NCBI GenBank assembly: GCA_019637975.1
Contig: JAHBUR010000004.1
Coordinates: 32,209 to 96,208 of the forward strand
Reading direction: 5' to 3'
Source: Bacteroidota bacterium
GTDB lineage: Bacteria > Bacteroidota > Ignavibacteria > UBA10030 > UBA6906
Length of the DNA: 64,000 bases
The position numbers and the translations under genes are program-made. Below are positions 4,110 to 52,354 of this stretch, piece after piece. Position 1 is the first letter of the stretch; each line of letters starts with the position of its first letter. The notes under the pieces are model-generated. The model made no database searches. It was not told where the DNA came from and worked only from the letters and a program-made list of their open reading frames with translations.

Positions 4110-4110
4110 T

Positions 4111-12132: not shown

Positions 12133-15068
12133 GTGTTAACCTCTGCATTCTGCGTATGTTGTAACTTATCCATGAATGATCTGAATGATGTGCGTTGTTG
12201 CTCTGTAGGCAGCTTCGTCAGAATCCTCTCAAGTACCTTGATGTGAGCGGAAACTCGCGCGACAGCTTTAGCTTCCTCAAGGTTAATTCTTGTACGAGAC
12301 TCAAGGAAAAAGTTTGCCACTTTGTCCCTGTGCGTTAGCGAAACTTCCGGCATCTTTGCAAGGCTTTTCAAAAGTTGGATGGTCGAAAGTCTGCTGAGTA
12401 TGGCTAATTCTTTCTCATTTTCCCCTCCTTGGTGATAGCGTGTCAACAACGCAATAGCCGCACGTAAGCGCAGCAGAGGAACTTTTCCAGTAGCGACAAT
12501 GTCTTCCAGTTTCGAAATTTCACCACAGGCAATAAGATGCTGGAGTATTCTATCCTTTACAAGTGGAGCTACTTCCTTATCGTAGAAGGTCGTAAGCCAA
12601 CTAGCTGCTTCAGTAAGACTCGTGGATTGCATTAAGTCAAGTGCAACCTCTTTCAAATTGTTGTCCCGACGATCTTCCCCCAGTTCGCACAGTTTTTGAA
12701 TGAAGGTCAGTGATGCAAATTGGCTCCAGCCCCGCAAAGCATAAAGTAGAGCAATTGTCCTCTGCGGATCTCGCACGTAAAGTCTCTCGGGCGCCTCCAG
12801 AATATCATTCATCCAAGTTTGAATGATGTCCCGTTGATTAGGTTCCAGACAAAAGAAGGAAAACGCGGAAAGAATTCGATTGATAGTGGCCGTGTCAAGA
12901 GAATTTCGATATTCGAAGCACGCCTTGACGGCTTGCTCTGCTGCATTTTCGATCGGATATTGTTCGATGATGCTTAACCACTCCTCCCAAAGTCGTGGCG
13001 AATTCCCATAGAGATCGGAACGGAGTTTTTCGGCGCCGTTAGAATGAAAGAGTTCACGCAATGATTGATGACGTCGTATCAAGTGATCAGAAAGCAGGTC
13101 GCACAAAGCAGGCGGTATCTCCTGATTCCCAAGAGCGAGATCGTCAAGCGTCATTTCACGTTCGCGTGTACTTTCTTCCCGTAACTCAGGATAGGTCTTC
13201 ATCATATGGATGAGTTGGTCCCATGTCTGCTGATTCGCGTTGGATTGGGCTGAAACTCTCCATAAGAACTTGATCGCTATGCTGGCTTGATCTGAAGAGC
13301 GGATGTTTCTGAAGCGTTCGAAGCATTTTGAGACGACCAGATCCCAATCACGGCTATCCGATAGCCTTTCCAAAAAGAGTATTGCCAGCGACCAGAAATT
13401 GGGATTCTCCGACAACGCAGCGACCCCACCCGATATTTGGGCACGATTACCAGACCAAATGGTCAAGGCTGCCTCCACCACCCAGTAATTGAGCATGAAC
13501 GGAAAGGAAATGGTGACCGTTGAGAAATCTCTTTGCAAAATGTCCTTCAAGACAACAGGGCCCAATTCTGGGAACGGGAATTCCCTGCGTTCGGCCTCAA
13601 AGCTCTCTGCGTCGATTTTTCCGTTCCAATCCTTCCATGTTTCCGGAGGGGAATTCAACCACTGTCTGGCGAAGGGTCTGATTATCAGCAAATCGACTTC
13701 TTTTATCTTTTCGTTACGTCGAAGACCAGATGGCAACACTTGTTTGAGAAAGCCATGGCTGAGTTCACGCAAGTAGTCAATATCGGACCCACCTTCAGCA
13801 GCACTTTGGTAATAGTTCAGCAACAGGTTCAAACCGAACAAACTATCCTTAGGTAGTGGAGATGAAGGCGACACCCAGAAATTATACAAGCTACCCCACT
13901 TTTCTCTAAGGAGACTGCGCTGAGCACGCAAATATTGCCACACTTCCGGAATCGATGGGGGACATATCGACATTTCCCGCCAGTTCTTGAGTTCGCCTCC
14001 GTGTTCTCTAAAATCTTTGCTGCGCAGACTGAGCCAAACGCGATTTGCCCGTCCCTCACGTTCATTTTCATCACGCAACCGTCTTAGCCAAGCCGGCAAT
14101 AGCCTGTATTTTTCTTCGGCAGGATCAATCTCATCCAAATACAACCACAGGCTACCCTTATTCCAGCAATACTGGAGAGTTTCAAACTCTGGCCACAATG
14201 CCGATCTAAGAATCGTGAATGGAGGTCCATCGTTCGTGTCAAAGTCCTTGATCGCAGCAAAGCTCACTGGCAAGGGCCAATGTGTCGGATTTTGCTGTAG
14301 GTACAAAAGTTCCCGTACTACATGAATCATGAGTGACGTTTTCCCACTGCCGACGTCGCCAGTAATAATTGCATAAGGACTGTCGCATGCCACTTCCAAG
14401 GGTGACAGCCTCTGCTCGGTGAGATGCAGAGGACAATAAGGCTGCCCTGGAGTCTCCAGGATCGGATCCTGTTCCCATGCTCTCGGCCCTCGGTTCCAGT
14501 ACTTCCTTATTGCGTCTCGAATTTCGCCACTGGTTGGATCTTGCCGTTGTTTATTATCTAATTTGCCTCCGTATTCATGCGCAAATATGTCCTTGATTCG
14601 AGAGAATTTGGGATAGTCTGTGTTATAGAGATTGACTATTTTGTGCAATAGATCCTTGGCCGAGAGAATATGCTTTTTAGGATCGAACCATTGGTATTTG
14701 CTCTTTTTCATCCTTGGGCGATCAAGTTTGAGAATAAGAAACCGAAGTCCGTTGGTGAAAGTTTTGTCATGCTGATACTTGACAAAAGCCTCTAGCGTGT
14801 CTCTTATTTTTGTTCCATCAGTTCTCGATGTTATTTGAAAAGCAACCTTACCTTGTGTATTATCGCCCAAGTCAATAGCCGGAAAATTTGCTTGTTTCTG
14901 GTTGAGGTTTTCCAGTCTCAGATCAAAGATCGTATTTAAGACATCTTTGCATAGATCTTCAGAAAGTTTGTTGATATCGAAAAAGTTTAAGGCATTCTGC
15001 GAATCAATTTCGCTGAGCCATTCCATCACATATTTCGATATGGTTTGTATTTCGGTTTGCTTATTCAT
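12111..15068 (-). CDS. STAND/NACHT-type NTPase (985 aa) with an uncharacterised ~230-aa N-terminal domain and a C-terminal helical-repeat region
   Basis: Walker A ITGDVGSGKTSLM at about residue 240; Walker B LWLYLDEIDP; a long C-terminal alpha-repeat (HEAT/TPR-like) region. This is the architecture of antiviral STAND (Avs-like) proteins. Confidence 0.7.
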   Translation of the reverse strand: MNKQTEIQTISKYVMEWLSEIDSQNALNFFDINKLSEDLCKDVLNTIFDLRLENLNQKQANFPAIDLGDNTQGKVAFQITSRTDGTKIRDTLEAFVKYQHDKTFTNGLRFLILKLDRPRMKKSKYQWFDPKKHILSAKDLLHKIVNLYNTDYPKFSRIKDIFAHEYGGKLDNKQRQDPTSGEIRDAIRKYWNRGPRAWEQDPILETPGQPYCPLHLTEQRLSPLEVACDSPYAIITGDVGSGKTSLMIHVVRELLYLQQNPTHWPLPVSFAAIKDFDTNDGPPFTILRSALWPEFETLQYCWNKGSLWLYLDEIDPAEEKYRLLPAWLRRLRDENEREGRANRVWLSLRSKDFREHGGELKNWREMSICPPSIPEVWQYLRAQRSLLREKWGSLYNFWVSPSSPLPKDSLFGLNLLLNYYQSAAEGGSDIDYLRELSHGFLKQVLPSGLRRNEKIKEVDLLIIRPFARQWLNSPPETWKDWNGKIDAESFEAERREFPFPELGPVVLKDILQRDFSTVTISFPFMLNYWVVEAALTIWSGNRAQISGGVAALSENPNFWSLAILFLERLSDSRDWDLVVSKCFERFRNIRSSDQASIAIKFLWRVSAQSNANQQTWDQLIHMMKTYPELREESTREREMTLDDLALGNQEIPPALCDLLSDHLIRRHQSLRELFHSNGAEKLRSDLYGNSPRLWEEWLSIIEQYPIENAAEQAVKACFEYRNSLDTATINRILSAFSFFCLEPNQRDIIQTWMNDILEAPERLYVRDPQRTIALLYALRGWSQFASLTFIQKLCELGEDRRDNNLKEVALDLMQSTSLTEAASWLTTFYDKEVAPLVKDRILQHLIACGEISKLEDIVATGKVPLLRLRAAIALLTRYHQGGENEKELAILSRLSTIQLLKSLAKMPEVSLTHRDKVANFFLESRTRINLEEAKAVARVSAHIKVLERILTKLPTEQQRTSFRSFMDKLQHTQNAEVNTWQRTSA

Positions 15069-17294: not shown

Positions 17295-17512
17295 TCCTGT
17301 TCCGGGCACAGCCCAAGGGGTATCGTTCACGCGGTACCCCTTGCTGTTTTGGATTGATGCAGTGAGCACGATCCCTTCAAAAACAGAACCGCCCCGCACG
17401 TCTGCGGGGCGCTTCATTTTGCTCTTTGCATTGTACTTCTCATGTTATTTCTAACATCAGTTATACTCCGCAATCGCGGCGGTGTGCACACGGAAGTCGC
17501 CGCGCTGTATCT
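17295..17512. repeat. copy A of a ~218-bp direct repeat (the second copy is at 26920..27135)
   Basis: About 93% identical to copy B. It contains a minus-sense hairpin plus T-run, ccccgcagacgtgcgggg + ttctgtttttg, so it looks like a 3'UTR/terminator module. Confidence 0.8.
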
Positions 17513-17570
17513 ACCTGACCTGCCCCCAATAAACCGTTCCAAGTGTTATCTTGGATAAAAGGAGGCAGCA

Positions 17571-17849
17571 ATGAGCAAACAGAGACATACGGCAGAGCAA
17601 ATCATCGGCAAACTTCGCGAAGCAGAAGTGTTGCAAGCAAAGGGGATGTCGATGGAAGAGGTAATGCGCCAGTTGTGTATCAGTGATGCAACATATTACA
17701 AGTGGCGGAAAGAGTATGGCGGTCTTCGCGTTGATCAAGCAAAACGGCTGAAAGAGTTGGAACATGAGAACAGTCGGTTGCGCAAGGTGGTGTCAGATCT
17801 CTCGATCGATAATGCCATCTTGAAGGAGGCGGCCCGGGGAAACTACTGA
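17571..17849 (+). CDS. IS3-family transposase OrfA (HTH)
   Basis: 92 aa, MSKQRHTAEQIIGKLREAEV...ATYYKWRKEYG, typical of IS3/IS911 OrfA. Confidence 0.8.
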   Translation: MSKQRHTAEQIIGKLREAEVLQAKGMSMEEVMRQLCISDATYYKWRKEYGGLRVDQAKRLKELEHENSRLRKVVSDLSIDNAILKEAARGNY

Positions 17850-17872
17850 GCCCGGCCAAACGGCGCCGGGCG

Positions 17873-18704
17873 GTGGAAGAGATTGTGGAGGCACTTCACG
17901 TATCCGAACGACGAGCGTGTCGCGTGTTAGAGCAGCCGCGAACAACACAACGTCATCAGGCGTCACGCCGAAGCGATGAGGAACCGTTGCGGAAACGGAT
18001 TGTTGCCTTGGCGTGTCTGTACGGACGCTATGGGTATCGGCGAGTAACGGTGTTACTGAGGGACGAAGGCTGGCGAGTGAATCACAAGCGCGTTGAACGC
18101 CTATGGCGCCAGGAAGGCTTAAAAGTGCCGCAACGACAAGCCCAAACGGAGACGGTTGTGGTTCAATGATGGGTCATGCATACGGTTACGTCCGTTGTAT
18201 CGGAACCACGTGTGGAGCTACGATTTTGTTGCAGATCGTACGAGTGATGGCAAGCCGATACGGATATTGAACATTCTAGATGAGTATTCACGCGAGTGTT
18301 TGAAGATTCGCATCGACAGACAGATGAAAGCAGTAGATGTGATTTATGAATTGTCGGAACTGTTTGTTGAACGCGGAGTACCGGATTACCTCCGCTCTGA
18401 TAACGGGTCGGAATTTGCAGCGGCGATAGTCCGTGATTGGCTGAAACGACTCGGCGTCAAGACACTCTTTATCGAACCAGGGAGTCCATGGGAGAACGGC
18501 TACATCGAATCATTCAACGGAAAAATGAGAGATGAATTATTGAATGGAGAAATCTCTGATACTATTCTGGAGGCACGGGTGATCACAGAACGATGGAGGA
18601 AGGCATACAACACGGTTCGACCACACAGTTCATTGGGATACCGTCCACCGGCGCCAGAAGTACACCAATATCTTAGCTTGCCAGTGGCTGAGCAAATTAA
18701 CTAA
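17873..18704 (+). pseudogene. IS3-family transposase OrfB (DDE integrase core) disrupted by a frameshift near 18156-18169
   Basis: Two frames, 17873..18169 and 18156..18704, together encode a typical OrfB (YRNHVWSYDFV...DNGSEF...PWENGYIESFNGKMRDE). The expected ...QRQAKRRRLWFNDGS junction is broken. Confidence 0.7.
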
Positions 18705-18855: not shown

Positions 18856-19521
18856 TTAGCAACCATATGCTTGCAGTTTTGTGCCTTGAAGGGTTGCCTT
18901 GAAAAGGGCAGGACCAAAACGAATACTCGTTGCAGTCATTTTGCCCTTCGGTGAACAGACTGTTACCATATCTCCTTTTTTGAAGGAACTCCAAGTTACT
19001 TTCTTCGTGTTCCTACATAGCTTTGTTACTGGTGTGATATCAAAGCTAAGCACTGTGTCCTTGGCCTCCAACGTGATGCGTTTTGAAGTGATCTCGGATA
19101 TTGGGAAACTGACAAGAACGAGTTTCGGGTTGATCAAATAGGTTCCCTTCCCCTGCATCATAAGTTGGCCTCCTGCACCCGTGGTAGTTCCGACGAAATT
19201 GATCTGATATTCAATGGTTTGAGAACCAAGGCCTTTACTATTCTGCGTGGCAGTGTAAGGCATAACAGCCCTTCCTTTCCGGCTGGCGGTAGAAGAATGA
19301 GGCTTCTCGAGCAGCTCCACAATTTCACTGTGATTGTTTTTTTTTGCTTCACTTAAGGCCGTACTTCCATCATTTGCAGTGAGGTTCTCTGACAGGCTCG
19401 ATAACCTCTTCGTTGCCGCATCAGCCGATGCTTGAGAATATGCAGTACTTGCACTACATCCTGCTAAGACATTGATGAAGTAAACGAACAGAAGGAGTAA
19501 AAATGAATACCGCTTGCCCAT
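18856..19521 (-). CDS. lipoprotein, hypothetical (ankyrin-like fragment)
   Basis: Signal peptide ending in the lipobox LAGC (MGKRYSFLLLLFVYFINVLAGCS). GGGAG RBS 8 nt upstream of the ATG at 19521. Confidence 0.6.
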   Translation of the reverse strand: MGKRYSFLLLLFVYFINVLAGCSASTAYSQASADAATKRLSSLSENLTANDGSTALSEAKKNNHSEIVELLEKPHSSTASRKGRAVMPYTATQNSKGLGSQTIEYQINFVGTTTGAGGQLMMQGKGTYLINPKLVLVSFPISEITSKRITLEAKDTVLSFDITPVTKLCRNTKKVTWSSFKKGDMVTVCSPKGKMTATSIRFGPALFKATLQGTKLQAYGC

Positions 19522-19634
19522 GTTGTTGACTCCCAAGGTAATATGAGACTTTCGACGTGAGGGGGATTATCGCAATCATATGTTTGCAGTTTTCACCGAA
19601 TTCTTTCCCTTGATTAGCAGGTTCTCTTCAAACG

Positions 19635-19880
19635 TCATCTTGACTTACGTGAAAACACCATCAGCAGGATAATCAGTTGTGACAGAACTTTCAAAGCGTC
19701 CTTGGAAAGAATCGCAAACACCGCAAATGAAGAAGTTAGGGCGAGCAGGAACAAGATAGCGAATGACCATACTGATAATCCGAAGATCTCCCTGATTTGC
19801 AGCAGGACAAAGGTGATGAAAACGACAAATGAGACAATCATTTTCTTGATTAGCGAGCCAATGTCCTTGCATGATATCAC
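19635..19880 (-). CDS. small membrane protein, hypothetical
   Basis: 81 aa with two hydrophobic helices. Weak evidence. Confidence 0.3.
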   Translation of the reverse strand: MISCKDIGSLIKKMIVSFVVFITFVLLQIREIFGLSVWSFAILFLLALTSSFAVFAILSKDALKVLSQLIILLMVFSRKSR

Positions 19881-19887
19881 GTACGCG

Positions 19888-20880
19888 TTAGAAGCTTATT
19901 CCGGCCGTTACAAGGATAAGAGATGAGGGTTGCTGGCCTTTGCCTATTGTCTGACCACCGGATTTGAATTCGTATTCAGGCGAACTAGCATAATAGCGAA
20001 CTGAAAGATCGAAATGCGAAATCGTAATCCCGATTCCACCGCCGTAGGCAACAGCAGTAGCTGTAGCTCTCTCAATGGTTACCGAAGCGCTTTGGCCAGT
20101 TGTGCTTCGCGCGGAGAGGGTGATTTCAGGTGATAGCCCAATTAACGCGCCAAGCAATCCTTCGCCGTGTATCCTGACGGTCGGCGAAATTGCCCCAATC
20201 ACACGGACTCCTAACATTGGCCAGATTCCTGTCCATGAGCCTGACTCCACATTGACCGTGACTGTCGGCGACACCGAACCAACACCTGCGATCACAGTAC
20301 CAAAGTCTGAGCCGTTAAACGAAACTACGGTACCAAGCAGCACCTGAATGGTTTGTCCGCTGCTATTCCATTCTATGCCTGCAGCAAAACCCGATTTCGC
20401 GAATCCGGCATCAGGAGTGCTTATATTTGATTCACCGAAATTGCCCACTGGCATTGCAAGACCACCAAACAGCGACACGGAATTGCTTTTCTCAGGATAT
20501 GTCCCGGTCGGGGTAAACTCTGAATCGAATGGTGGCCGTTCTGCAGTGGAAGGTCTTGAGGGAGGCCTTGAAGGGGGTCTCGATGGAGGCACCGGCGACA
20601 TGCTCGATTCTCTGGTGATTGAGATAACGTCGTTCATATTCAGTGTGACAAGGCTTGAATCAGCGAGTTGCACAGTCAGGGGCTCGTAGCTCAGGATCTT
20701 ACCTCGAATGTTGCTGCCACCTTTTAACATGATGACGTCCTGAGTTTCTTGGCTCTGCGCGGCCTTCTCGCTAGTCACCGCTCGGGTTGTATCTGCTGTC
20801 GGCGATTCGAGAATCCAAGTGGAGTTGGCTGTTGCTGATATGATTGTAGGGAAGACCAGGCATAAGAGTGTTTTATTCAT
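19888..20880 (-). CDS. secreted outer-membrane-like protein with a proline-rich linker
   Basis: N-terminal signal peptide, a PPSRPPSRPPSRP linker, a Gly/Ser-rich beta region and a C-terminal ...AGISF, as in OM beta-barrels. Confidence 0.55.
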   Translation of the reverse strand: MNKTLLCLVFPTIISATANSTWILESPTADTTRAVTSEKAAQSQETQDVIMLKGGSNIRGKILSYEPLTVQLADSSLVTLNMNDVISITRESSMSPVPPSRPPSRPPSRPSTAERPPFDSEFTPTGTYPEKSNSVSLFGGLAMPVGNFGESNISTPDAGFAKSGFAAGIEWNSSGQTIQVLLGTVVSFNGSDFGTVIAGVGSVSPTVTVNVESGSWTGIWPMLGVRVIGAISPTVRIHGEGLLGALIGLSPEITLSARSTTGQSASVTIERATATAVAYGGGIGITISHFDLSVRYYASSPEYEFKSGGQTIGKGQQPSSLILVTAGISF

Positions 20881-21349
20881 GATTCACATCTCCAAGTATT
20901 AGGGTGCATTCTCTTATTCTGATACGCCCATACTTCCCTGGAACAACTGATATTGATAGCCTTTGTCCGTCTGACTGATCTGCAAGGCACTCCACATAGT
21001 ACGTCTTACCTGCCTCTGCCTTGAAGACAAACTTGGCTGGTCCTCCAATAGCCTGGATCCCCGTAACAAACAGCTTGAAACGGACGGCAGAAGTAATTTC
21101 GACTTTCCCTTCCTCAATGACCACCGGAAAGTATCCCATCCTTTCCAGAATACCGATTTCTGCACCATTAACCTTCAGGTCGAACTCGGTGCTTTTGCCA
21201 TCGTCAGGACGATAGAGATATGCAATGCTGCGACCATGTGGGATGCCGGCCACCTCCTTGAAAAGCGGTCCACGACTTGAAGAGCAGCCGACACTTGATA
21301 AGGTAATGGCAAAGAGCAACCCCAAATGGAACGTGTCAATTTGTCTCAA
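20873..21349 (-). CDS. lipoprotein, hypothetical
   Basis: Signal peptide with the lipobox SSVGCSS; 158 aa. Confidence 0.55.
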   Translation of the reverse strand: MRQIDTFHLGLLFAITLSSVGCSSSRGPLFKEVAGIPHGRSIAYLYRPDDGKSTEFDLKVNGAEIGILERMGYFPVVIEEGKVEITSAVRFKLFVTGIQAIGGPAKFVFKAEAGKTYYVECLADQSDGQRLSISVVPGKYGRIRIRECTLILGDVNHE

Positions 21350-21415
21350 AAGAAGTTTCCTCCCAGCAAGAGTATAGGGCAGTTACACTGACGACCCAGC
21401 ACATCTCAACTGCTT

Positions 21416-21961
21416 TCAGAAAAAAACGTTATAGGATACGGCCAATCCACCATTGTGGTGTCGTTTGATATTGAGGCCCCTTAGAAGCGCGGAGCTCTTG
21501 CTGTAAACCGTACTCCAATCCTCAATGGCCTGTCCTATTAAGTAACCAACCAACCCGCCTCCAAGTACGGCGAGCGGTATTATGAGCGCAGTCGTAAGCT
21601 CCTCATCTGTAACCAAGCCAGGAAGGTTTGACTTTTCAGGTTCACTCCCCAACGAAATAGCTAACCCAATGCCACCGCCCATGAGAGCGCCAACCACCCC
21701 TCCGGTTAGTCCATAGTCGCCGCTATACTCTTCCATCCTCGCGACTTCACTCAAACTCATTGCGTACCTAATCGGAGAGTCTTTTACATAGTACTCGACG
21801 GAATCACTAGTTAAGACCATGTGCTGTCCATTGATAAGAACGTTATCAGCAGTATAGATTCTACCCTTGTTAATTGCTTTGGCTTCAACACGCTCATTTC
21901 CTTGCCCGAATGATGACTGGTTCATCGTGACCAGAAGTACGAAAATAGCTATCTCTTTCAT
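21416..21961 (-). CDS. secreted or membrane glycine-zipper protein, hypothetical
   Basis: Signal peptide plus a GGVVGALMGGGIGLAISLG glycine-zipper segment; terminal F. Confidence 0.5.
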   Translation of the reverse strand: MKEIAIFVLLVTMNQSSFGQGNERVEAKAINKGRIYTADNVLINGQHMVLTSDSVEYYVKDSPIRYAMSLSEVARMEEYSGDYGLTGGVVGALMGGGIGLAISLGSEPEKSNLPGLVTDEELTTALIIPLAVLGGGLVGYLIGQAIEDWSTVYSKSSALLRGLNIKRHHNGGLAVSYNVFF

Positions 21962-22256: not shown

Positions 22257-22283
22257 CTTGACAACGGATGCACAATGGTAACG

Positions 22284-24638
22284 TTACTTCACGCTTTTCA
22301 GCGCCTCGACATACCTCTTGTTAGAAACCGGCTTGTCATGCCATGTTTCGCCATCCCAATAGCGGATTGATTTTTGGTATTCGCTCATGTAAAGCCCTCG
22401 GTCCAAGCGTCGTATGCGCCCTTTCTCCATGAGATCTTCATAAACAAGATCAAAATCGTCTCCAGTACCGATGCCGGTAACGGTGAGGTCCGTTTTGAAG
22501 TACGCCCATAGTGAGGGGGACAGTCGGTCTTCCTGACGCTCACCATCGATGTCGGCATCCTCCAACCTCAGAACGAAGGTAGATGAATCTTCGTAAAAGA
22601 TACGCCGCGCCCAATTGTACTTGTTTCGTAGCCCAAAAACCTCGCCAACAACCGTTCTTGGTATCCGGATGTAAGAGCGCTCGGTGCCTGCATCGTACCC
22701 ATCCACTTGATACTCAGCAGTGAGCGGAGAATGTCCTGACATGAAACGAGGGTCAAGTACAACAACACACGCAGATCGCAAAGCGTTGTTAGTTCCACAC
22801 AGTAGGATTTCTGTGATACCATCCCCATCCAAGTCCCACGGCAGTATATCCACCAAGTGACCAATGTGAACATAATGCGCTAGTTCTTTCCCGGTTGCTG
22901 CATCGAGCTTCATAACAATGCCGGGAAAGAACGGCGAGAGGCGTCCACTAATAATGACTTCATAAGAGCCATCATTATCAAAATCTCCTGCAATGAGCGC
23001 GTTTGGGACCAGCTCTTTCCCTTTCACGTCGGTGTTATGCGGAAAGTGGAGAGTCTTCTCCATGACTTTCGACCAAAGAGGGGTTTTGGTGCCTATCGAT
23101 TTACAGTCAATTCTTGTAGGAAAAACGCTTGCCACCCAAATAACCTCGCTCACCCCATTATGATCAACGTCGGCAAAACCTACAAACACCGTTCGAGGAC
23201 GCCGAAGATCGTCATCCTTTGAGCCCTTTACGATTGTCTCACCAACCCATATTTCGTCCACTGTCTGGCCTTGCTTGTTCTTTATGAACAACATCCCACC
23301 CTTAAATTCAAATCCAACTGGATTCTTGTCGAGCGGACCGTACCACAATCGCCAGAAAGCGACAACAAGAAAGAGAAAGGCTGCCGCAGCAATCGGGAAC
23401 CGCCACTTCCATAGCCTTCGCGCGGCGTGCTTGTGAATGGGAACACGAACCAGGTCGGAAAGCCGGCGGTCGAAAAACACCTCGCGTAAATCAGTGACGC
23501 CGACAAGAGTGAGAGTTCGATGTGGATATTTTTCCGTCAATGAGCAAAGTGCTTCTTCAGCAGCAGCAAGTTGTAGCTTCGGAAGGACAAGAAATTCAAT
23601 CCATGAAAAGAAGGCTGCCTTCACCTTCTCGGGCAGGGTTGCCGACTTGACCTCCTGCACGTAACCTTTTTCGTCAATGGCACCCGTTAACGCAACTGTA
23701 GGTCTGATCCGATAGTACTCCCGCTGCATCGATGAACGGAGTATTTCACAGCAGGTAAGCGCCGCTATGCCAAGGTTTGCCGAGAGTCCTTCGTGCATAG
23801 CATGTTCGTCTTCAAAAACCAATCTGCCGGCAACAAAATGCTTGGCTGCTTCGGGATACTTTTCTGTAATCAGATTGCGGGTGGCTGCGATTGGCGCGGC
23901 AATGATGTCGGCTGAGGTTGTGTCGGCTCCAAACACAGCAACATCTGCATAAATTTGGTCTTTACCATTACGAGATTCACCAAGGACCTCCACGCTGACA
24001 CGACGGAGGCCGCTGTCACCCTGTTCTGAATGTACCCTTACCAGGGAATGCTCGACAACAGGAATCACCACACTACGATTGGCTCCGGATATTGCCTTTA
24101 CCCAGATGGCTTCGATTTTCTTCAGGGCAGAAGTCGTCTTCTCATCCGTGGACCTTTCCACTGCCTGACGCAAACGATTCAAGGGGGGAATTGACGGATT
24201 TGTCTGGATTTCCGTGACCCAAGGTTGCAGGTTGCCTTCCTGCAACACAGACATTGCTTTGGCAAGCTCTCCAGCATATGCAAACAATGTCGCAGCAGCG
24301 AGCTTCATCTCGTTGATGTCAATGCCGTAATCACGGAAGACCACAATATCATTGTGGACCAACAACACATCTTCGGGATCACATCCAGTCAGATCGGCGT
24401 TTGACAGGATGTTTGGAAGATACTCGGTCAGTTCTGTGAGGTACGGTTCTCTGGAAATCTGACTCTTATTCAGCATTCCGAGAAATCTGGCCATCGCGAA
24501 CAAATGCTGGCGGGCTGAAGATGGAAAAGAAAGCAGGTGCTTCAGGTCTTGAAAATGCTGTTCGATATCAAGGGGGGAGTTCACTACGTCACTACAAGAT
24601 TGTTCAGAGCTATCCAGTTCATAAGCAGTGGTTGGCAC
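22284..24638 (-). CDS. membrane-anchored Lon-like (S16-type Ser-Lys) protease domain protein with a periplasmic FG-GAP/beta-propeller region (784 aa)
   Basis: GLSANLGIAALT resembles the Lon GPSAG Ser motif. ALTGAIDEKGYVQEVK...PEKVKAA resembles the Lon TGEI...GGLKEK Lys region. A single TM (IAAAAFLFLVVAFWRLWY) follows, then DxDxDG repeats (DFDNDGSYEVI, DLDGDGITEIL, DADIDGE). Confidence 0.5.
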   Translation of the reverse strand: MPTTAYELDSSEQSCSDVVNSPLDIEQHFQDLKHLLSFPSSARQHLFAMARFLGMLNKSQISREPYLTELTEYLPNILSNADLTGCDPEDVLLVHNDIVVFRDYGIDINEMKLAAATLFAYAGELAKAMSVLQEGNLQPWVTEIQTNPSIPPLNRLRQAVERSTDEKTTSALKKIEAIWVKAISGANRSVVIPVVEHSLVRVHSEQGDSGLRRVSVEVLGESRNGKDQIYADVAVFGADTTSADIIAAPIAATRNLITEKYPEAAKHFVAGRLVFEDEHAMHEGLSANLGIAALTCCEILRSSMQREYYRIRPTVALTGAIDEKGYVQEVKSATLPEKVKAAFFSWIEFLVLPKLQLAAAEEALCSLTEKYPHRTLTLVGVTDLREVFFDRRLSDLVRVPIHKHAARRLWKWRFPIAAAAFLFLVVAFWRLWYGPLDKNPVGFEFKGGMLFIKNKQGQTVDEIWVGETIVKGSKDDDLRRPRTVFVGFADVDHNGVSEVIWVASVFPTRIDCKSIGTKTPLWSKVMEKTLHFPHNTDVKGKELVPNALIAGDFDNDGSYEVIISGRLSPFFPGIVMKLDAATGKELAHYVHIGHLVDILPWDLDGDGITEILLCGTNNALRSACVVVLDPRFMSGHSPLTAEYQVDGYDAGTERSYIRIPRTVVGEVFGLRNKYNWARRIFYEDSSTFVLRLEDADIDGERQEDRLSPSLWAYFKTDLTVTGIGTGDDFDLVYEDLMEKGRIRRLDRGLYMSEYQKSIRYWDGETWHDKPVSNKRYVEALKSVK

Positions 24639-24654
24639 TCACGGCAAAGTTGAA

Positions 24655-25497
24655 TCAACAGTAGAGCCTGATTGCAAGTGTATCGGGAATACTCGCCATT
24701 GTGCAGGTTCCCGCCCCGTTCTTTAAGGGGATAAGAAGTGCTCTCCCGCTACCGTCAGTTATCAGCGCCCTTGTGATCTCCTTCTCAGACGCTGACTGTG
24801 CATTAAGGTGAAGGGTGGCCCCGTCATAATGCACAGAGAGCGTGAAGTCGGCCTCACTTGATCGAGAATGGCCTTCGTGATTGACAACATCTTCCTTGGA
24901 ATACTCAAAATGAGCGGCAGCCGTGTAAAGTAATGCAGGCATTCCTGCAACTTCCTTTGTCCGATACGTCGCCGGAACCTTGAACTCGGCAAACCCTTGC
25001 ATGTCCGTAACACACTCTACTGCAAGTTCCGGGAAGACGACGATCCCATATTCCCGCTTTCGTACATCATCGGTCAGAACGTAGAGCTTATATGTGCCGT
25101 GCGTTTTATCATACAGAATGCGGGCAACAATACTCTCTTCTTCGGAATGTAGTGCAAACGATTCAAAGCGATGCTCTATTGCAGTATCGGCAGCTAATAC
25201 AGTTGTGAAACCTGAAGGGACCGCTCTTGGCCCCGGTTTGTATACGAGAGGGCGCAACGGAACAACTCCACTCACCGGAAAAATGGAGTGTACAAAAGCG
25301 GCCGCCTTCGGTGTCCGAACATATGGACGAGCTTCCACCTCGGAATAAAAAGACTGCAGAAATTCAAGAGCCTTGAGGCATACTGGGCAGGATTGCAGGT
25401 GTTCTCTCGTTGCTGCAACCTCGTCCTCGTGAAGGGTATCCGGGGCACGCAGGTAACGCTCTAATATAATTTCATCAATGTGTTTCATGTTCCCCAA
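24655..25497 (-). CDS. zf-HC2 (ZAS-type) putative anti-sigma factor
   Basis: N-terminal HLQSCPVCLKALEF (HxxxCxxC zinc motif) in the first 50 aa; 280 aa. Confidence 0.55.
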   Translation of the reverse strand: MGNMKHIDEIILERYLRAPDTLHEDEVAATREHLQSCPVCLKALEFLQSFYSEVEARPYVRTPKAAAFVHSIFPVSGVVPLRPLVYKPGPRAVPSGFTTVLAADTAIEHRFESFALHSEEESIVARILYDKTHGTYKLYVLTDDVRKREYGIVVFPELAVECVTDMQGFAEFKVPATYRTKEVAGMPALLYTAAAHFEYSKEDVVNHEGHSRSSEADFTLSVHYDGATLHLNAQSASEKEITRALITDGSGRALLIPLKNGAGTCTMASIPDTLAIRLYC

Positions 25498-25533
25498 TCT
25501 GATTCGTAACGGTTAGCATGCCGTGCAGAAAAA

Positions 25534-26541
25534 TCAGAGCTCATCTTTCACTTTTTTAAGGAGAGCTGCACGTGTTTCTTTCAATAGATACTCTAAGAAT
25601 ACTCGATGCACTGCGTGGTACGTCTCTCTGGAGAGGTTGTCGCATTTGTCCGCCAATCTGGCGAATAACGATGTACCGTCCCCATCATTATGAATGAACT
25701 CAGCCTCCAGAGACTCTGAAATCACATCGAAGTAGATGCAGTACATGGTTTCCTCAATTTTGTTCTTGCCTACATAGCTTTGCTTCTTGTCGAATTTGAC
25801 TGTTGCTATGCATTCCTCGAGAAACGTTCGTAGCTCTTGCTGCTCAAATGATCGATCGTCCTCGGAGGCAATGGAGCTCATTTCGCCGAGACTTTCAAAG
25901 GCCGAAAGAAGAATCTGTGCGAATCCAACCAATGGGAATGCCCTGCTGTAGCAGGCCTGATCAGCGAGCTGTTTCGTAAGATCATTGAGAAGCACCCTCA
26001 AGTTCCGATTTGCACTCACCAAAGGAACAAGATACACTTCCAACAGCTCGGGAGGTATCAATGGCAGCGTAAACGCAGACGGGTTCGCATCACCAAAACA
26101 AACCCACCATTTGTCATTCACGAGCTTAACTGATGCCCGGGAGGACGATTTTGTATCTTTCAAATTTCGAATCAACTTGCGAAGATTTGGGTCAGACTCG
26201 CCGTACGCTTTGAAGATTCGGTTCGATACTTCGCTGAATACGAGTCTTCGGGTAATGCCGTAGAGAGCGGTTTCATCCATTGCCGCAATGGAGAATTGAG
26301 AATAATAGTCAACCAGTCTAGTGAATTTGTTTTCCTTGTCCCTCTCGAAGAGTTCGGCAATGCAATCAACCGCAAAGTCTTCCAAAGAAAGATGAAGAAG
26401 GAACCCTGCCAGCCTGCCGGATTTCTGTTTGGTGTACAAGTAGGCAATGGCGATCTTGTGAAATTCTTCGAATACCAAACCAACACATTTTTGTGAGGGG
26501 AAAGGCGAGATAGCACCCGAAATGATTTCTTTCAAGCTCAT
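25534..26541 (-). CDS. hypothetical protein; possibly a divergent ECF-sigma-like protein with an extended C-terminal region
   Basis: The HKIAIAYLYTK...SLEDFAVDCIAELFE segment resembles sigma-70 region 2 (..AEDLVQETF..). Region 4 is not clear. Weak evidence. Confidence 0.3.
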   Translation of the reverse strand: MSLKEIISGAISPFPSQKCVGLVFEEFHKIAIAYLYTKQKSGRLAGFLLHLSLEDFAVDCIAELFERDKENKFTRLVDYYSQFSIAAMDETALYGITRRLVFSEVSNRIFKAYGESDPNLRKLIRNLKDTKSSSRASVKLVNDKWWVCFGDANPSAFTLPLIPPELLEVYLVPLVSANRNLRVLLNDLTKQLADQACYSRAFPLVGFAQILLSAFESLGEMSSIASEDDRSFEQQELRTFLEECIATVKFDKKQSYVGKNKIEETMYCIYFDVISESLEAEFIHNDGDGTSLFARLADKCDNLSRETYHAVHRVFLEYLLKETRAALLKKVKDEL

Positions 26542-26817
26542 CGGAGACGGGGAATCATGAACTAACTCCGGAATGTGTAGACTAAAGATACGTTGAGAGA
26601 TGATGATTTACAATAGAAACCGAAGAGATTGGGGCGGCCCCTGCCGTGCATCATCAGCAAGGTCTGGAAAGAAAATCAACTGAGGGGGATGAGGGATGCA
26701 AGCAGGAATTCGATAAGGGCTACCGGGCAACTGAAGAAAAATTGCGTCTTCGCTACTGTGACATCCTTAGATTATCATTTCAAACACGGTATGATAGTGC
26801 GAACGTGTGAGCAAAGA

Positions 26818-26919: not shown

Positions 26920-27135
26920 TCCTGTTCCGGGCACAGCCCAAGGGGTATCGTTCACGCGGTACCCCTTGCTGTTTTGGATTGACGCAGCGAGCACGATCCC
27001 TCCAAAAACAGAAATGCCCCGCACGTCTGCGGGGCATCTTATTTTGTTCTTTGCATTGTACTTCTCATGTTATCTCTAACATCAGATACTCCGCAATCGC
27101 GGCGGTGTGCACACGGAAGTCGCCGCGCTGTATCT
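26920..27135. repeat. copy B of the ~218-bp direct repeat (3'UTR/terminator module of the 27151..27732 gene)
   Basis: Aligns end to end with 17295..17512. It has the same minus-sense hairpin, gccccgcagacgtgcggggc + tttctgtttttgg. Confidence 0.8.
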
Positions 27136-27150
27136 TCCCTACCAGCGGAT

Positions 27151-27732
27151 CTACTGCACGGTCTCCGTCTTCGTTCCGATGTTGCCGGGACGGTCGTTAG
27201 CCGTTACCACAACAGAGTACGCCTGTCCCGCAGGGACCTGCGCTGTTGCGGTATAGACCCACCGGTCGAGCAAGCCTCCCTCCTTCACCGCGTTGCCGCT
27301 TTCCACTTCGTTGCCGTTCGCGTCGTTGATGCGGACTTTGACGCTCGTGACTTCGAAGTCGTCTGTGGCACCGATGATGATTGTGCCTCCGGGCTCACGG
27401 TTGTACTGCGAGAGGTCGATGGAGTTGACCTCGGGAGCATTCAGGTAATCGCCGGAGATGAGACCAGCTACGGGACGGTTTCTGAGTTTTGCCGCCTCGT
27501 CGTACGGTGCACGGGCTTCCGGATCGGCAGCAACAAGTTTCACGTAGCGCCCCGCAAGACGCACGCGGGCTTGCTGTGTAACCTGCTTCTCCGTAAACGG
27601 GGCGTTCCGTTTCGGCTTGCGCCGCATCCCCGCTTTCCCGTAGCTCTCGTAGAAGACGACGTTTCCCATCCGGCCCGAGAGACCGTCGAGGAATGAGCCT
27701 AACCTTGGAGTTGCCATTGTAGTACCTTTCAA
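27151..27732 (-). CDS. hypothetical protein with an Ig-like beta-rich C-terminus
   Basis: 193-aa ORF followed by the terminator module. No catalytic motif. Confidence 0.5.
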   Translation of the reverse strand: MKGTTMATPRLGSFLDGLSGRMGNVVFYESYGKAGMRRKPKRNAPFTEKQVTQQARVRLAGRYVKLVAADPEARAPYDEAAKLRNRPVAGLISGDYLNAPEVNSIDLSQYNREPGGTIIIGATDDFEVTSVKVRINDANGNEVESGNAVKEGGLLDRWVYTATAQVPAGQAYSVVVTANDRPGNIGTKTETVQ

Positions 27733-28685: not shown

Positions 28686-29138
28686 TCAGGGTTGGCGTGA
28701 GCGTTTTGTCTTTGATTCTGCGTGCCCCAGCACTTCACGGCATAGCTGGACAAATTCTGCCAGGCTGAGATCACTCTTTGCATCGTTCACGCGCCATGAG
28801 CAGATCCTAAAGTTCGGTGCATCCATACCATCGTCCACGTGATCGACGGTTGGCAGGTCGCCAAAGTTCTTCTTATACGCTCTTCCGCCAGCTTGAGCTG
28901 CATCATTATCGTAACGGGAAATGAGTTCCCATTTGAGTGGAAGACCAGTGTACGCATCCACACCATTGCTCGCTGTGACAGCTGCGTGAATGGCTTTCTT
29001 GTAACTCCCAACCTTTGCAGTAGTATTCCCGCGCTTTCTGTCCCGGCGGACATGGGCATTCGCTTTTGCATGCAACCATTTCTGGTATACACGCTCGGAG
29101 CACTTGCCATGAAGAAAGAAAGGTAAGGTGTACTTCAT
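28686..29138 (-). CDS. small HNH-like endonuclease candidate (150 aa)
   Basis: TVDHVDDGMDAPNFRICSWRVNDAKSDL fits a degenerate HNH pattern (D-H...N-x3-C...N-xx-K). Last gene of the cluster headed by the PtuA-like ATPase. Confidence 0.35.
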   Translation of the reverse strand: MKYTLPFFLHGKCSERVYQKWLHAKANAHVRRDRKRGNTTAKVGSYKKAIHAAVTASNGVDAYTGLPLKWELISRYDNDAAQAGGRAYKKNFGDLPTVDHVDDGMDAPNFRICSWRVNDAKSDLSLAEFVQLCREVLGHAESKTKRSRQP

Positions 29139-30061
29139 GAGCTCTCCTTGGTGCCGACAACGATACTTTCATCAACGAGTTCAAAGGGTGATGTCTCACG
29201 TTGGTAGTTAGCCCAATGAGAACGGTACTGAGTCTGCTCAAGCAAGTGCATGTCAACGTTGTCCCCATCAGGGCCTTCATCCAGCCCCCATTCGACCAGA
29301 ACACCTCCAAGATTTGTCAAGATAAACCTTGGATGCATTCTTTTTCCTCCCGCACCTTGTTCCCAAGCTTCAAACCTCTTCCAACGAACGAAATTGACGC
29401 TGAGAACTTTTGGAATAATATTCCCCAAGAGCTGGGTGCACCCCTTTGAAAACTTCGCCTTGTCCAGATTGCCCGAAGCAAGCAGGTGATATTCGATTCT
29501 CGTCTTTTGAACAGTGCCGCGAGCAACTTTGCCGAGGAACAACTCAAGGGGTCTTCGAAATCTCTCCTCGGCTGCGTCGAAGTGTGCATCAACGAAGAGA
29601 ATCTCAGTACTCATCTGAAGCAAACGACCGATTGCAGCTGCCATCGGCTCTGCTTTCCGTTGTACATTCCGCTGGCGGGGCGTGTTCCACAGCGGCGTCT
29701 CTTCCGATAGATCCTTCGCTATGAGAATATTCGGATGGCTTCGTGGGTTCTGATAGGAAACAATAGCATGAAACGGTTCCGCTTTGTGTGCCTGCTCTGC
29801 ATTTGCCAACCAATCAAGAGTTTCCGAGTAGTGACGATCGGTCTTGCAGAGCCGGTCGCCTATTGTGTGGAGCCTTTCTTCGATTCGTTTGAGTTCGATT
29901 TCCTTGCAGGCCTTTTTGCATGCCCGATAGACTACACGTTTCCATTTCTCGGGGTACTCGGCGATAATACGGCCATTGTGGACACCGCAATGGTCGACAA
30001 CGTAGCGGAAGTCTTGCCAGTTACTGATGGAGGCCGGCTCGATTGCATATTCGAATACCAT
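29135..30061 (-). CDS. hypothetical protein (middle gene of the AAA-ATPase cluster)
   Basis: 308-324 aa depending on the start. The MVFEY start at 30061 abuts the stop of the upstream ATPase gene. The Cys/His-rich segment DHCGVHNGRII...YRACKKACKE might bind zinc. Confidence 0.5.
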   Translation of the reverse strand: MVFEYAIEPASISNWQDFRYVVDHCGVHNGRIIAEYPEKWKRVVYRACKKACKEIELKRIEERLHTIGDRLCKTDRHYSETLDWLANAEQAHKAEPFHAIVSYQNPRSHPNILIAKDLSEETPLWNTPRQRNVQRKAEPMAAAIGRLLQMSTEILFVDAHFDAAEERFRRPLELFLGKVARGTVQKTRIEYHLLASGNLDKAKFSKGCTQLLGNIIPKVLSVNFVRWKRFEAWEQGAGGKRMHPRFILTNLGGVLVEWGLDEGPDGDNVDMHLLEQTQYRSHWANYQRETSPFELVDESIVVGTKESS

Positions 30062-30063
30062 GG

Positions 30064-31767
30064 CTAGAACAGCTCCTCCGCCCGCTCTGCGAAGAAACCG
30101 CCGGGCCATTTCTGTACGAAGTCTCCCTCCGGCGTGATATCTAATGGAATCACCGCAGAACCATTGGCTCCGGGCTGAACATAAAGAACCTGAACATCAT
30201 TCGGGGTTATGTCGGGAACTTTTTTCTCGGAGCTTTCCCTGATCCTTCGCAGAATCCTCAGTATCAAATGCTCACTATGCGTCTCCAAGATAAACGTGTT
30301 CTTCCGTTCACCCAAAGCAGACTCAATGAACACATCGCCGAGTTCGGCTTGCAAGGCCGGGTGAAGATGAATTTCCGGCTGTTCGATGGCAATAGTCTTC
30401 TTCTCATTTGCAAACGCATAAACGAGAACTGGCAATGCTTGGCTTATACCTATTCCCACGTCACGATGGCTGACGGGTGTGTCTGTGCGCAGGTCAATCA
30501 ACACGAGGTCTCTGATTTGGTCGGGTGATGTTTGAGCAAGTTTTCTTGCCAACTCTTGTCCTCGCGAAGGCTCACGAAAGAATGCTTCAATTTCTTCTTT
30601 CGTGGCCTTTTTCATTTCCACTTGAGAGAGATCGATTCTCTCAAGCAGACGGTCATTGTACTCGTCAAACATCGCATCGAGTTCTTCAGAGAGGTAGGTA
30701 TCAGCGATGAGATCTCTCACGACAAGGGCGTAGGGGGTTGAGAGACGGTCGGGGCCAAGCCAATTGTTGACCATGTTGCGAACTTCAAAATTGCGACGAA
30801 CAATGTCCCAAGCGTATCCTCCGCCGGCTTGCCAGTTGGCATCGAGTTCCTTGGAGAAGGCAAGATGTCGCTCCGGATAGGAACGTAACGGCCCGAGGTA
30901 AACGATAGACGAAAGCCAGGATTCGAGCTCTTTTGTAGAAGACAACACCATATCTGAGAGCTTGCCCGGAAGGAACAGATCGATTGCCGCATTGATATCG
31001 TCTGTACGCGTACTGCGCCCAACTGGAATTATTCTGTCGGGGCCTTCCTCCGGTCCCTCCCCGGCAAACCCCAGTTGGGCAGGAAGTATCCCTTTGAAGA
31101 AGACGCCGGCGCTTGCCATGAACTCAACAAGATGGGCCTGCACTTGCTTCACGTCATGATCACTTGTCACAGTTACCGTAGTTGACATAAGAACAAGTGC
31201 TTGTATCAACTCCACTATCAATGGATGCGAAGCGATGAGGTTAAGTTTGTACATGCCATTCTTCGGACTGCTGACTTGCGCAATATCCTTGCCGTCGACT
31301 GCAATTGAAAAGGATTCCACGCGCGGAATACCGACCGGCACAAGGTTTCCCGTTGGAACTCTGATCGTTACAGGTTTTCCTGTACGTGGATCCGTGGATT
31401 CCTTTTCCACCATTTCTTCCTTGTGCTCCAAACCAATCAATATCTCGAATCGTATTGTGGAACCCGCGTGAAAGACGGAGAACGATTCGGGGGCAATCAT
31501 CTCAAAACAGAGTGAGAGTCGCCTCATTGAATCAGTTCTATGGATGTACTGTCTGAAACCTCCCAGATCGACGGCATCACCGCCTACCTGCGTGTGGCTG
31601 ATATCAAGCTTTCCAGTCTTGGTTGCTTCATTTGCCAGAAGCAGGGAGTGGATAATACTCGACTTTCCCGAACTGTTCGCCCCAAAAATAAGCGTGAGCG
31701 GACGAATGGGGATGGTCTGCGTTTCTGCAAACGCTTTGAAGTTGCCGAGGCGGAGGGATTTGATCAT
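30064..31767 (-). CDS. ABC/SMC-like AAA_15/AAA_21 ATPase with a DUF3696-like C-terminus (PtuA-like, Septu-type)
   Basis: Walker A LTLIFGANSSGKSSI. Walker B/D-loop KKTIAIEQPEIHLHPALQ. H-loop ILETHSEHL. C-terminal PNDVQVLYVQPG...AVIPLDITPEGDFVQKWPGGFF, as I recall for DUF3696. Confidence 0.6.
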   Translation of the reverse strand: MIKSLRLGNFKAFAETQTIPIRPLTLIFGANSSGKSSIIHSLLLANEATKTGKLDISHTQVGGDAVDLGGFRQYIHRTDSMRRLSLCFEMIAPESFSVFHAGSTIRFEILIGLEHKEEMVEKESTDPRTGKPVTIRVPTGNLVPVGIPRVESFSIAVDGKDIAQVSSPKNGMYKLNLIASHPLIVELIQALVLMSTTVTVTSDHDVKQVQAHLVEFMASAGVFFKGILPAQLGFAGEGPEEGPDRIIPVGRSTRTDDINAAIDLFLPGKLSDMVLSSTKELESWLSSIVYLGPLRSYPERHLAFSKELDANWQAGGGYAWDIVRRNFEVRNMVNNWLGPDRLSTPYALVVRDLIADTYLSEELDAMFDEYNDRLLERIDLSQVEMKKATKEEIEAFFREPSRGQELARKLAQTSPDQIRDLVLIDLRTDTPVSHRDVGIGISQALPVLVYAFANEKKTIAIEQPEIHLHPALQAELGDVFIESALGERKNTFILETHSEHLILRILRRIRESSEKKVPDITPNDVQVLYVQPGANGSAVIPLDITPEGDFVQKWPGGFFAERAEELF

Positions 31768-49420: not shown

Positions 49421-49525
49421 TGGTGTCCATACTTGATTTTCGTTCCGAGAAAAGAAGCTGAATTATAGTACCGGTTGATTCTCGATATTCTTCCCATCAC
49501 ACAGTTGCAGGCCCGGGCTCAAAGC

Positions 49526-50692: not shown

Positions 50693-50896
50693 TTATGCGC
50701 CACTAATAGGCTCCGGTCGGAAGGCATAGGGTCTGATCGTACACCGGCCATCCGTCATCATCTCCTTGAACAAGACGGCTGCATCGTGGTTTCGAAAGAT
50801 CGCAAAAGGCTTCTTCTCATCCTTCACAAAGACAGCCCAGTATTGCATTACCTTTGGTTCGCGGGGTGAGACCCCACCGTAGGGCATGAAGTACAT
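50693..50896 (-). CDS. small conserved hypothetical protein (~68 aa), paralog of 55189..55389
   Basis: MYFMPYGGVSPREPKVMQYWAVFVKDEKKPFAIFRNHDAAVLFKEMMTDGRCTIRPYAFRPE is about 60% identical to the second copy. The longer ORF start at 51022 would overlap the neighbouring gene. Confidence 0.5.
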   Translation of the reverse strand: MYFMPYGGVSPREPKVMQYWAVFVKDEKKPFAIFRNHDAAVLFKEMMTDGRCTIRPYAFRPEPISGA

Positions 50897-52124: not shown

Positions 52125-52354
52125 TTCAATCTCCTGGAAAAACGAAAATCATTTAGGAAAAGACAACACCAAAAAGATACGAATTTCAGATCATAATAGA
52201 TTGAAGGAGAGGGGGCGACCGCCTCGACGAACGTGTTGTGCGTTGGTGTGAGTCTACGCCATGCTGTAAGCCTGTTCATTCCGCGTATTCTTGCCTCGGT
52301 TTGGATTTCAGCATGCAATCGAGTACATTTGGCGAAATCATTTGCCACTCAAAT

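Follow-up and report, generated by a model that had tools for sequence, protein, structure and literature searches.

What does a bacterium gain from a membrane-anchored protease encoded beside two soluble proteins, one faintly reminiscent of an anti-sigma factor and the other without a recognisable family? The question is raised by three genes, here called A, B and C, on a 64,000-nucleotide stretch of contig JAHBUR010000004.1 (assembly GCA_019637975.1) from a Bacteroidota bacterium, the whole of which is referred to as the window. In the reading preferred here, drawn by analogy with the CalpL system and given a probability of about 0.5, the A-B-C operon would encode a transmembrane proteolytic signalling module, in which C senses a signal outside the cell, cleaves the soluble protein B and releases A. 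The observed part of this picture comprises the domain architecture, conserved catalytic dyad and topology of C, the absence of transmembrane (TM) segments from A and B, and the linkage of the three genes.

The three-gene unit and the protease C

A, B and C are confirmed by the listing of open reading frames (ORFs) as three co-directional ORFs (Table 1). Homologues of B start at MKHIDE, which gives a protein of 277 aa counted from 25488. The true start of C is probably the GTG at 24584, giving 766 aa, because homologues begin with MxSPLDI, while residues 1-16 of the long form are unconserved and modelled with a predicted local distance difference test score (pLDDT) below 50. In a Bacteroidetes metagenome-assembled genome, NCBI labels these proteins as hypothetical (KF749_02925, KF749_02930 and KF749_02935) and places the starts further in (736 aa for C, 314 aa for A), whereby conserved and confidently modelled N-termini are lost. 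Owing to the short intergenic gaps, of 36-45 bp and 16-70 bp, the genes look like an operon. A scan for sigma-70-type promoters, which is uninformative for this phylum, gave sites not above shuffled controls.

The arrangement recurs elsewhere. Neighbourhoods were counted, by hidden Markov model (HMM) searches for the three genes, over 19 related loci only (L001 to L019). When redundant loci are set aside, 14 of 15 show the order A-B-C, with differing flanks. The order A-B-C is found in L001-L005, L008, L011 (Ca. Zhuqueibacter), L013, L015, L018 and L019, and A-B-C-C, with tandem C paralogues, in L012 (Rhodothermales, 3683-8241) and L016 (Rhodohalobacter, 3623-8316); a second C behind a single A-B pair suggests sensor diversification or hetero-oligomeric proteases. 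The sources of such loci are Zhuqueibacter, Rhodothermales, Rhodohalobacter and uncultured Bacteroidetes, and their flanks are unrelated. L006 and L014 carry B-C on contigs that end before A, and B adjoins A in every one of the 19 loci except L017 and these two contig-limited cases. A further contig, from JGI, holds three genes of the same sizes in the same order, as judged from gene sizes alone. Synteny with a 79%-identical relative stops at 22271-26550, the borders of the trio. The trio is a conserved functional unit with A-B as its tightest pair, and the view of an earlier note on this DNA, that the three genes belong together, is borne out in the related loci.

That note had also described C as a cytoplasmic Lon-like Ser-Lys protease, and here the alignment to LonB, the structural comparison and the dyad all agree with it. 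The domain is undetected by Pfam and NCBIfam, with no Lon_C match even at E ≤ 1, and by PADLOC; the homology becomes visible only through a family profile and through structure. A word-indexed search returned only six homologues and made the family seem very rare. An exhaustive HMMER search with the alignment of those six, counting clusters at 50% identity, retrieved 3375 cluster representatives at E ≤ 1e-3 and at least 831 at E < 1e-30, the latter mostly of 700-800 aa and aligned end to end; C is thus a member of a large unannotated family, and the apparent rarity is overturned. When a profile of 92 family sequences was compared with the PDB, it matched AfLonB of Archaeoglobus (1z0e) at E = 4.9e-6. 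The match spans about 145 residues, and in the HMM alignment Ser286 and Lys338 of C fall on the catalytic Ser and Lys of AfLonB. The profile also matched MjLon, LonC, mitochondrial Lon and E. coli Lon. The check on conservation of this pair was passed, Ser286 being present in 136/136 full-length members and Lys338 in 134/136; Gly284 and Gly319 are each kept in 136/136, and position 318 is Thr in 127/136 and Ser in the rest.

An AlphaFold2 (AF2) model built on the 92-sequence alignment has a mean pLDDT of 93 and resolves a helical domain (22-184), an alpha/beta domain (189-400), a long helix (413-433) and a beta-rich region from 442 to about 760. In a Foldseek search of this model against the PDB, Lon proteases made up 50 of the 50 best matches, the protease domain of E. 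coli Lon (3wu6) aligning with a TM-score of 0.76-0.79, a root-mean-square deviation of 3.8 A and E of about 1e-8. With respect to MEROPS family S16, C has both the fold and a Ser-Lys dyad in conserved motifs, and fails the curated Lon_C HMM. The proteolytic-domain fold, the G-x-S-A and K-x-x-A-A contexts of the dyad and the T-G motif are shared with Lon proteases, and attachment to the membrane is shared with archaeal LonB. Unlike the canonical LonA, LonB and LonC, which carry an AAA+ or degenerate AAA-like module N-terminal to the protease, C has neither, nor does it have a LON N-domain: Pfam and NCBIfam scans and the AF2 model revealed no AAA/AAA+ module, and the 10-helix domain alone precedes the protease domain. 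The Ser-Lys spacing is 52 residues in C against about 43 in Lon proteases, the TM helix of C is placed C-terminal to its protease domain and continues into a large external domain, and the Pfam Lon_C model is blind to the domain of C. The N-terminal helical domain is variable, many family members aligning to the profile only from about position 170 onwards. By analogy with the N-domain of CalpL it is a candidate partner-docking domain, and hhalign showed no relationship among this domain, A and the N-terminus of B.

The helix at 413-433 is the sole TM candidate in C (Kyte-Doolittle 19-residue maximum 1.93). Six Lys/Arg residues lie in the 20 positions before it and three in the 20 after, a bias that predicts a cytoplasmic Lon domain and an external beta-rich domain. 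About 19 strands are seen in the modelled external domain, along with three DxDxDG-type loops, DVDHNG (490-495), DFDNDG (550-555) and DLDGDG (602-607), of which D490 is kept in 93% of the family and D602 in 92%. Homologues of C carry precomputed PF13517/PF01839 matches, and the C profile weakly matches the FG-GAP propellers CRTAC1 (9etn, E = 5.9e-4) and YesW in the PDB. An architecture of a cytoplasmic helical domain, a Lon-like protease, one TM helix and an external FG-GAP-like domain is thereby confirmed, and the topology claimed before, a single TM helix leading to an external FG-GAP-like domain, was correct. As to FG-GAP with DxDxDG repeats, the three loops are present, and the Pfam scores of C from the window fall just short of threshold.

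The last ~30 codons of C (22285-22372) have a second tblastx match, at 72-85% identity, in L001 (13070-13158), where it lies downstream of the C homologue by about 1.2 kb and may be a duplicated gene-end fragment.

The soluble partners A and B

A had been called sigma-like, and this did not survive any of the comparisons made. The A family numbers 46 proteins of about 335 aa, with a Pfam domain in none of them (0/46) and no TM segment in A itself. The AF2 model (pLDDT 88) has 15 helices and is all-helical except for one hairpin. No Sigma70 region 2 or region 4 match was found for A of the window in Pfam or NCBIfam, and Pfam Sigma70 models matched 0/46 members at E ≤ 1. NCBIfam gave a single match among the 46: residues 33-101 of member P0048 aligned to positions 1-56 of TIGR02937 with 17 bits (cutoff 42.9; E = 0.0035), where about 0.16 such matches would be expected by chance over 46 scans. 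The match covers the most conserved helix of A, LEDxAxDxIAxLF, within the strongest motif of the family (E54-D55-x-A57-x-D59-x-I61-A62-x-L64-F65), and the helix resembles region 2.2 by eye. No sigma factor was matched by A-family profiles in the PDB at E ≤ 10. Against an extracytoplasmic function (ECF) profile, made from the ECF sigma factor of the window and PDB sequences, hhalign gave A a probability of 0.4% over its full length and of less than 4% domain by domain. Foldseek returned neither a sigma nor any other fold match for the model of A (best E 1.1 in the PDB and 0.65 in BFVD). As a positive control, the ECF sigma factor of the window (49983-50564) passed Sigma70_r2 and Sigma70_r4 at 1e-11 to 1e-12. 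The best PDB profile match of A is the DUF2666 structure 3V68 (E = 0.004), which is uninformative, and a literature search on 3V68 found nothing relevant. Neither the sigma-2/sigma-4 folds nor profile-level homology to them could be recognised in A, and it is not detectable as a member of the sigma-70 family.

B had been taken for a zf-HC2 anti-sigma factor. The HxxxCxxC motif and weak anti-sigma matches are indeed there, and the HMM threshold was not reached: zf-HC2 (PF13490) scores 11.8 bits on B of the window against a gathering threshold of 22.2 (E = 0.27), and RsrA (0.054) and an NCBIfam anti-sigma model (0.11) also match far below threshold. The B family was assembled from the related loci and has 16 members; no Pfam family but zf-HC2 is matched by more than one of them (4/16; best E = 0.011), and the zf-HC2 matches are never above threshold. 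The sole PDB match of the family profile at E ≤ 10 is the anti-sigma factor RslA of M. tuberculosis (3hug_B, E = 0.93). This match, like that of zf-HC2, covers the HxxxCxxC stretch. Anti-sigma domains that do not bind zinc are known as well.

No TM segment is present in B of the window (maximum Kyte-Doolittle value over 19 residues 1.37), and the only homologue with a TM-like segment is the short one of L007. In the otherwise variable, Pro-rich linker, the columns of lowest entropy form a (V/T)LAAx(T/S) motif, in which L101 and A102 are each kept in 14/16 members, A103 in 15/16 and T/S105 in 16/16. From its sequence, B is best seen as a soluble protein whose N-terminal segment resembles an anti-sigma factor, a picture coherent in its evidence and statistically weak, and it is a candidate substrate of C.

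A proposed mechanism and its alternatives

In the mechanism envisaged, the outward-facing, FG-GAP-like and probably Ca2+-binding beta-rich domain of C would be the sensor, and a signal at the propeller would alter the oligomeric or active state of the cytoplasmic protease. The helical domain would dock the partner and the motor-less Lon domain would cut it. That partner would be the soluble, cytoplasmic B, which would hold A inactive until a specific cut, perhaps in or beside the conserved VLAA motif, left it with an LAA-type C-terminal degron for ClpXP-like proteases. A would then be released as the output, most likely as a transcription regulator. We infer the role of B as substrate, the cleavage site, the sequestering of A by B and the function of A.

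The closest analogue is CalpL/CalpT/CalpS, which is associated with type III CRISPR systems. CalpL is a Lon protease without an ATPase, with a docking domain at its N-terminus and a SAVED sensor at its C-terminus, and its oligomerisation through the sensor activates a specific cut inside an LAAA motif of the soluble anti-sigma factor CalpT. By way of the LAA degron thus exposed, CalpT is removed and CalpS set free, and the VAA degron of RseA is a further parallel (bioRxiv 10.1101/2024.05.08.593097). CalpLTS is likewise a three-gene module around a Lon-fold Ser-Lys protease lacking an AAA+ motor, CalpL resembles C in having a helical N-domain before the protease domain and the sensor after it, and CalpT, like B, is a soluble partner of about 30 kDa, cut in LAAA where B has the conserved VLAA. 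The trio differs in putting a TM helix and propeller in place of the SAVED sensor. The sensor of CalpL is a cytoplasmic SAVED domain that binds cyclic tetra-adenylate (cA4), whereas that of C would be an external FG-GAP-like domain reached through the TM helix; Pfam and PADLOC found no SAVED domain in C, and the annotation of the window and of those related loci that were examined shows no cas genes. CalpT combines a MazF-like part with DUF2080, neither of which was detected by Pfam in B, whose N-terminus instead resembles a zinc-binding anti-sigma (ZAS) domain, and CalpS is ECF-like where, by Pfam, A is not.

A second comparison is offered by pairs of an ECF sigma factor and a ZAS anti-sigma factor under proteolytic control, RseA-DegS-RseP-ClpXP and RsiW-PrsW. 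There, as in the trio, the gene of the regulator is followed by that of its anti-factor, and an outside signal leads to proteolysis of the anti-factor, as is proposed for B, which has an HxxxCxxC near its N-terminus and possibly an AA-type degron. The trio departs from these systems in having a soluble B, a cytoplasmic active site and no site-1/site-2 cascade, so that one protein would both sense and cut, and in that A fails every sigma-70 test and B the zf-HC2 threshold. The label 'site-1-protease-like', which the earlier note had attached to C, is a misfit, since B has no TM segment and substrate and active site would both be cytoplasmic; the geometry is that of CalpL cleaving soluble CalpT, unlike that of DegS or PrsW cutting a membrane anti-sigma factor on the outside.

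BrxL contains a Lon-like C-terminal domain. A link of C to this protein and to bacteriophage exclusion (BREX) had been raised and finds no support: BrxL is a soluble AAA+/MCM-like ATPase fusion in BREX operons, whereas C has no ATPase, no BREX genes are among the neighbours in the window, and PADLOC gave 0 matches for C. The searchable literature contained no description of a Lon, TM and FG-GAP architecture and, CRISPR systems apart, none of an anti-sigma-like gene linked to a Lon-like protease. The components and logic of the trio do have precedents, in the S16 fold, ZAS-like domains, CalpLTS and the regulated proteolysis of anti-factors, and it is A that is unexplained.

Several observations weigh against the signalling module. 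The HxxxCxxC of B is present in 8/16 members and lost from the remaining 8/16, the anti-sigma similarity of B, itself weak, is below threshold everywhere, and the VLAA motif may be nothing more than the opening strand of the beta domain of B. The FG-GAP assignment is borderline, Pfam giving FG-GAP_3 23.5 bits (threshold 26.9) and FG-GAP 21.4 (threshold 22.1). CalpL chains are not among the PDB profile matches of C at E ≤ 1, and the two have no specific sequence relation. The linkage itself has exceptions: L017 has B-C without an adjacent A; L009 and L010 have A and a B of about 180 aa, with C (614-692 aa) some 4 kb upstream beside dnaG; and in L007 (7001-9116) A and a 172-aa B with its TM-like segment are accompanied by only a fragment of C. 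Cleavage of B by C and binding of A by B are both inferred steps, and as A is not detectable as a sigma factor or known transcription factor, the output step is a guess. A fuller version, more doubtful and offered only tentatively, would see in the trio a widespread and hitherto unrecognised one-step transmembrane signalling class of the FCB (Fibrobacteres-Chlorobi-Bacteroidetes) group, in which the propeller senses an outside ligand, the Lon domain clips the ZAS-like B at a conserved LAA site and A founds a new family of transcription regulators or regulators that bind RNA polymerase, its fold being absent from the PDB.

Other accounts of the trio must be set beside this. Were A a very divergent ECF-type sigma factor, B a zinc-binding anti-sigma factor and C an initiating 'site-1-like' protease that destroys B, the order of the genes and the tight adjacency of A and B would be as in sigma/anti-sigma operons. 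The HxxxCxxC of B lies at the canonical distance from its N-terminus and attracts the weak zf-HC2, RsrA and RslA matches, A is acidic like sigma factors, and P0048 aligns to sigma region 2 of TIGR02937 (E = 0.0035) on the helix that resembles region 2.2. Such an account is nevertheless unlikely, for Pfam (0/46), PDB profiles, hhalign and Foldseek are all negative for A and NCBIfam gave just that one 17-bit match, when the same tools pick up the genuine ECF sigma factor of the window at 1e-11; with B not anchored in the membrane, periplasmic 'site-1' cleavage is moreover inapplicable. C might instead have a housekeeping or quality-control role towards membrane or secreted proteins, as a protease tethered in the way of archaeal LonB and served by A and B as chaperone- or adaptor-like accessories. 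Its best sequence matches are indeed the protease domains of archaeal membrane-bound LonB, envelope lipoprotein-like genes lie downstream (18856-21961), and genes for type IX secretion cargo (Por_Secre_tail) occur near several loci. This too is improbable: the lack of an AAA+ unfoldase makes processive degradation of folded proteins by C unlikely, ATPase-less Lon domains of known function, such as that of CalpL, cut specifically, and a large external repeat domain together with linked, co-varying A and B points to a specific signalling substrate.

Two further alternatives look to the surroundings of the trio, which in the window is part of a variable island. The other contents of the island include an insertion sequence (IS) integrase, a Type I restriction-modification (R-M) system, a SMEK protein and an OLD-like ATPase. 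The trio could on that ground be an anti-phage or conflict system, C serving as a surface sensor-protease for phage or envelope damage and A and B as a toxin-antitoxin-like or effector pair, and it is true that flanks differ even among close relatives, that HicAB adjoins A in L009 and that CalpLTS, the closest functional precedent, is a defence module. The odds of this seem low, however, when PADLOC matches none of A, B and C, neighbours elsewhere are housekeeping genes (ETF, LptE, ribosomal protein S20, DnaG, NusG, geranylgeranyl reductase), no link to cas or to CARF/SAVED was found, the family is taxonomically coherent (FCB group), and the tandem C of L012 and L016 looks like sensor diversification, not island turnover. 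Least of all would we expect the trio to be cargo of a mobile cassette, as had been suggested from direct repeats around it. The repeats exist, if not at the 218 bp first given: two copies of 229 bp, 92.6% identical, bracket 17.3-27.1 kb, with the IS integrase just inside the left one. The repeat, however, occurs in none of the 19 related loci, the conserved unit, and with it synteny, ends at 22271-26550, well inside the repeats, and no recombinase is conserved with the trio. The repeat holds two strong hairpins, e.g. GCCCCGCACGTCTGCGGGGC, terminator-like on both strands; copy 2 stands directly downstream of the minus-strand gene 27151-27732 and copy 1 abuts the IS element. With such hairpins and a position 3' of that gene, the repeat looks like a duplicated 3' intergenic element. 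The window gave no match to any Rfam family, so the repeat does not belong to the known RNAs; a duplicated 3' untranslated region/terminator and an unannotated small RNA are possible readings of it, and the repeat is genome-local and not part of the module.

If the signalling module proposed here is real, it would be a third route to signal-dependent proteolysis of an anti-factor, beside cascades of the DegS/RseP type and the cytoplasmic, nucleotide-activated CalpL, with a single polypeptide coupling an extracellular sensor directly to a cytoplasmic, site-specific protease of the Lon type. The C family, with its at least 831 clusters annotated only as 'hypothetical' and missed by Lon_C, is a sizeable S16-like clade absent from annotation. 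A, as a well-conserved and confidently modelled family lacking any detectable relative, is a good candidate for a new type of regulator.

The surrounding island

The features of the trio and of its neighbourhood are collected in Table 1.

Table 1. Coordinates in the window of the trio, its protein features and neighbouring elements
Feature	Position	Strand	Description
Gene A	25534-26541	-	335 aa; first of operon; soluble, all-helical, acidic (pI 5.6); family unassigned
Gene B	24655-25497	-	280-aa ORF; soluble; ZAS-like N-terminal helical segment, variable Pro-rich linker, beta-rich C-terminal part
B, H33-x3-C37-x2-C40 (HLQSCPVC)	25378-25401	-	Putative zinc-ligand motif (from translation)
B, V100-L-A-A-D104, then T105	25186-25200	-	In linker; candidate cleavage site/C-degron, by inference alone
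Gene C	22284-24638	-	784-aa ORF; single-pass membrane protein with ATPase-less Lon-family protease domain
C, residues 22-184	24087-24575	-	Cytoplasmic all-helical N-terminal domain; 10 helices (DSSP on model)
C, residues 189-400	23439-24074	-	Lon proteolytic-domain fold, MEROPS S16-like, alpha/beta
C, Ser286 (GLSAN)	23781-23783 (codon)	-	Catalytic Ser
C, Lys338	23625-23627 (codon)	-	Catalytic Lys
C, residues 413-433	23340-23402	-	Single TM helix, N-in orientation (predicted)
C, residues 442-784	22287-23315	-	Extracytoplasmic beta-rich FG-GAP-like domain, then small alpha/beta C-terminal part
Direct repeat	17295-17523 and 26920-27146		229 bp, 92.6% identity; two copies only
IS-like element	~17580-18704	+	rve/rve_3 integrase-core ORF 18156-18704 (E = 2e-28), preceded by short ORF, beginning MSKQRHTAEQ, near 17580
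Four small envelope-type genes	18856-21961	-	Directly downstream of C; lipobox/signal-peptide N-termini; include DUF2846 and glycine-zipper proteins
Three large ORFs	2661-15068	-	482 aa; 2673 aa without any Pfam domain; 985 aa with N-terminal SMEK domain (E = 2e-33)
OLD-like AAA_15/AAA_21 ATPase with DUF3696	30064-31767	-	Within 28686-31767; overlaps two ORFs downstream (324 aa and 150 aa) without Pfam match
Type I R-M system	34561-40209		hsdS 34561-35706; hsdM 35706-37457; hsdR 37906-40209
325-aa protein	40637-41614	-	N-terminal domain of RtcR type (CARF-like; E = 5.6e-9); sigma-54 activator part not evident

The envelope-type genes downstream of C are not kept beside the trio in the 79%-identical relative, and could be local targets or unrelated cargo. 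Further from the trio, the ORFs at 28686-31767 resemble a small defence-type operon next to the Type I R-M system, and the cluster of three large ORFs, whose SMEK-domain member occupies 12111-15068, may be a conflict or defence system. The minus-strand genes at 47749-50564 form a conventional sigma module unrelated to the trio, in which the ECF sigma factor used above as a control is followed by a 156-aa ORF without a family, possibly its anti-sigma factor, and lastly by a 583-aa protein of the beta-lactamase family with DUF3471. Further direct repeats pair 103-167 with 52220-52284 (65 nt, 85%) and 50755-50884 with 55248-55377 (130 nt, 72%).

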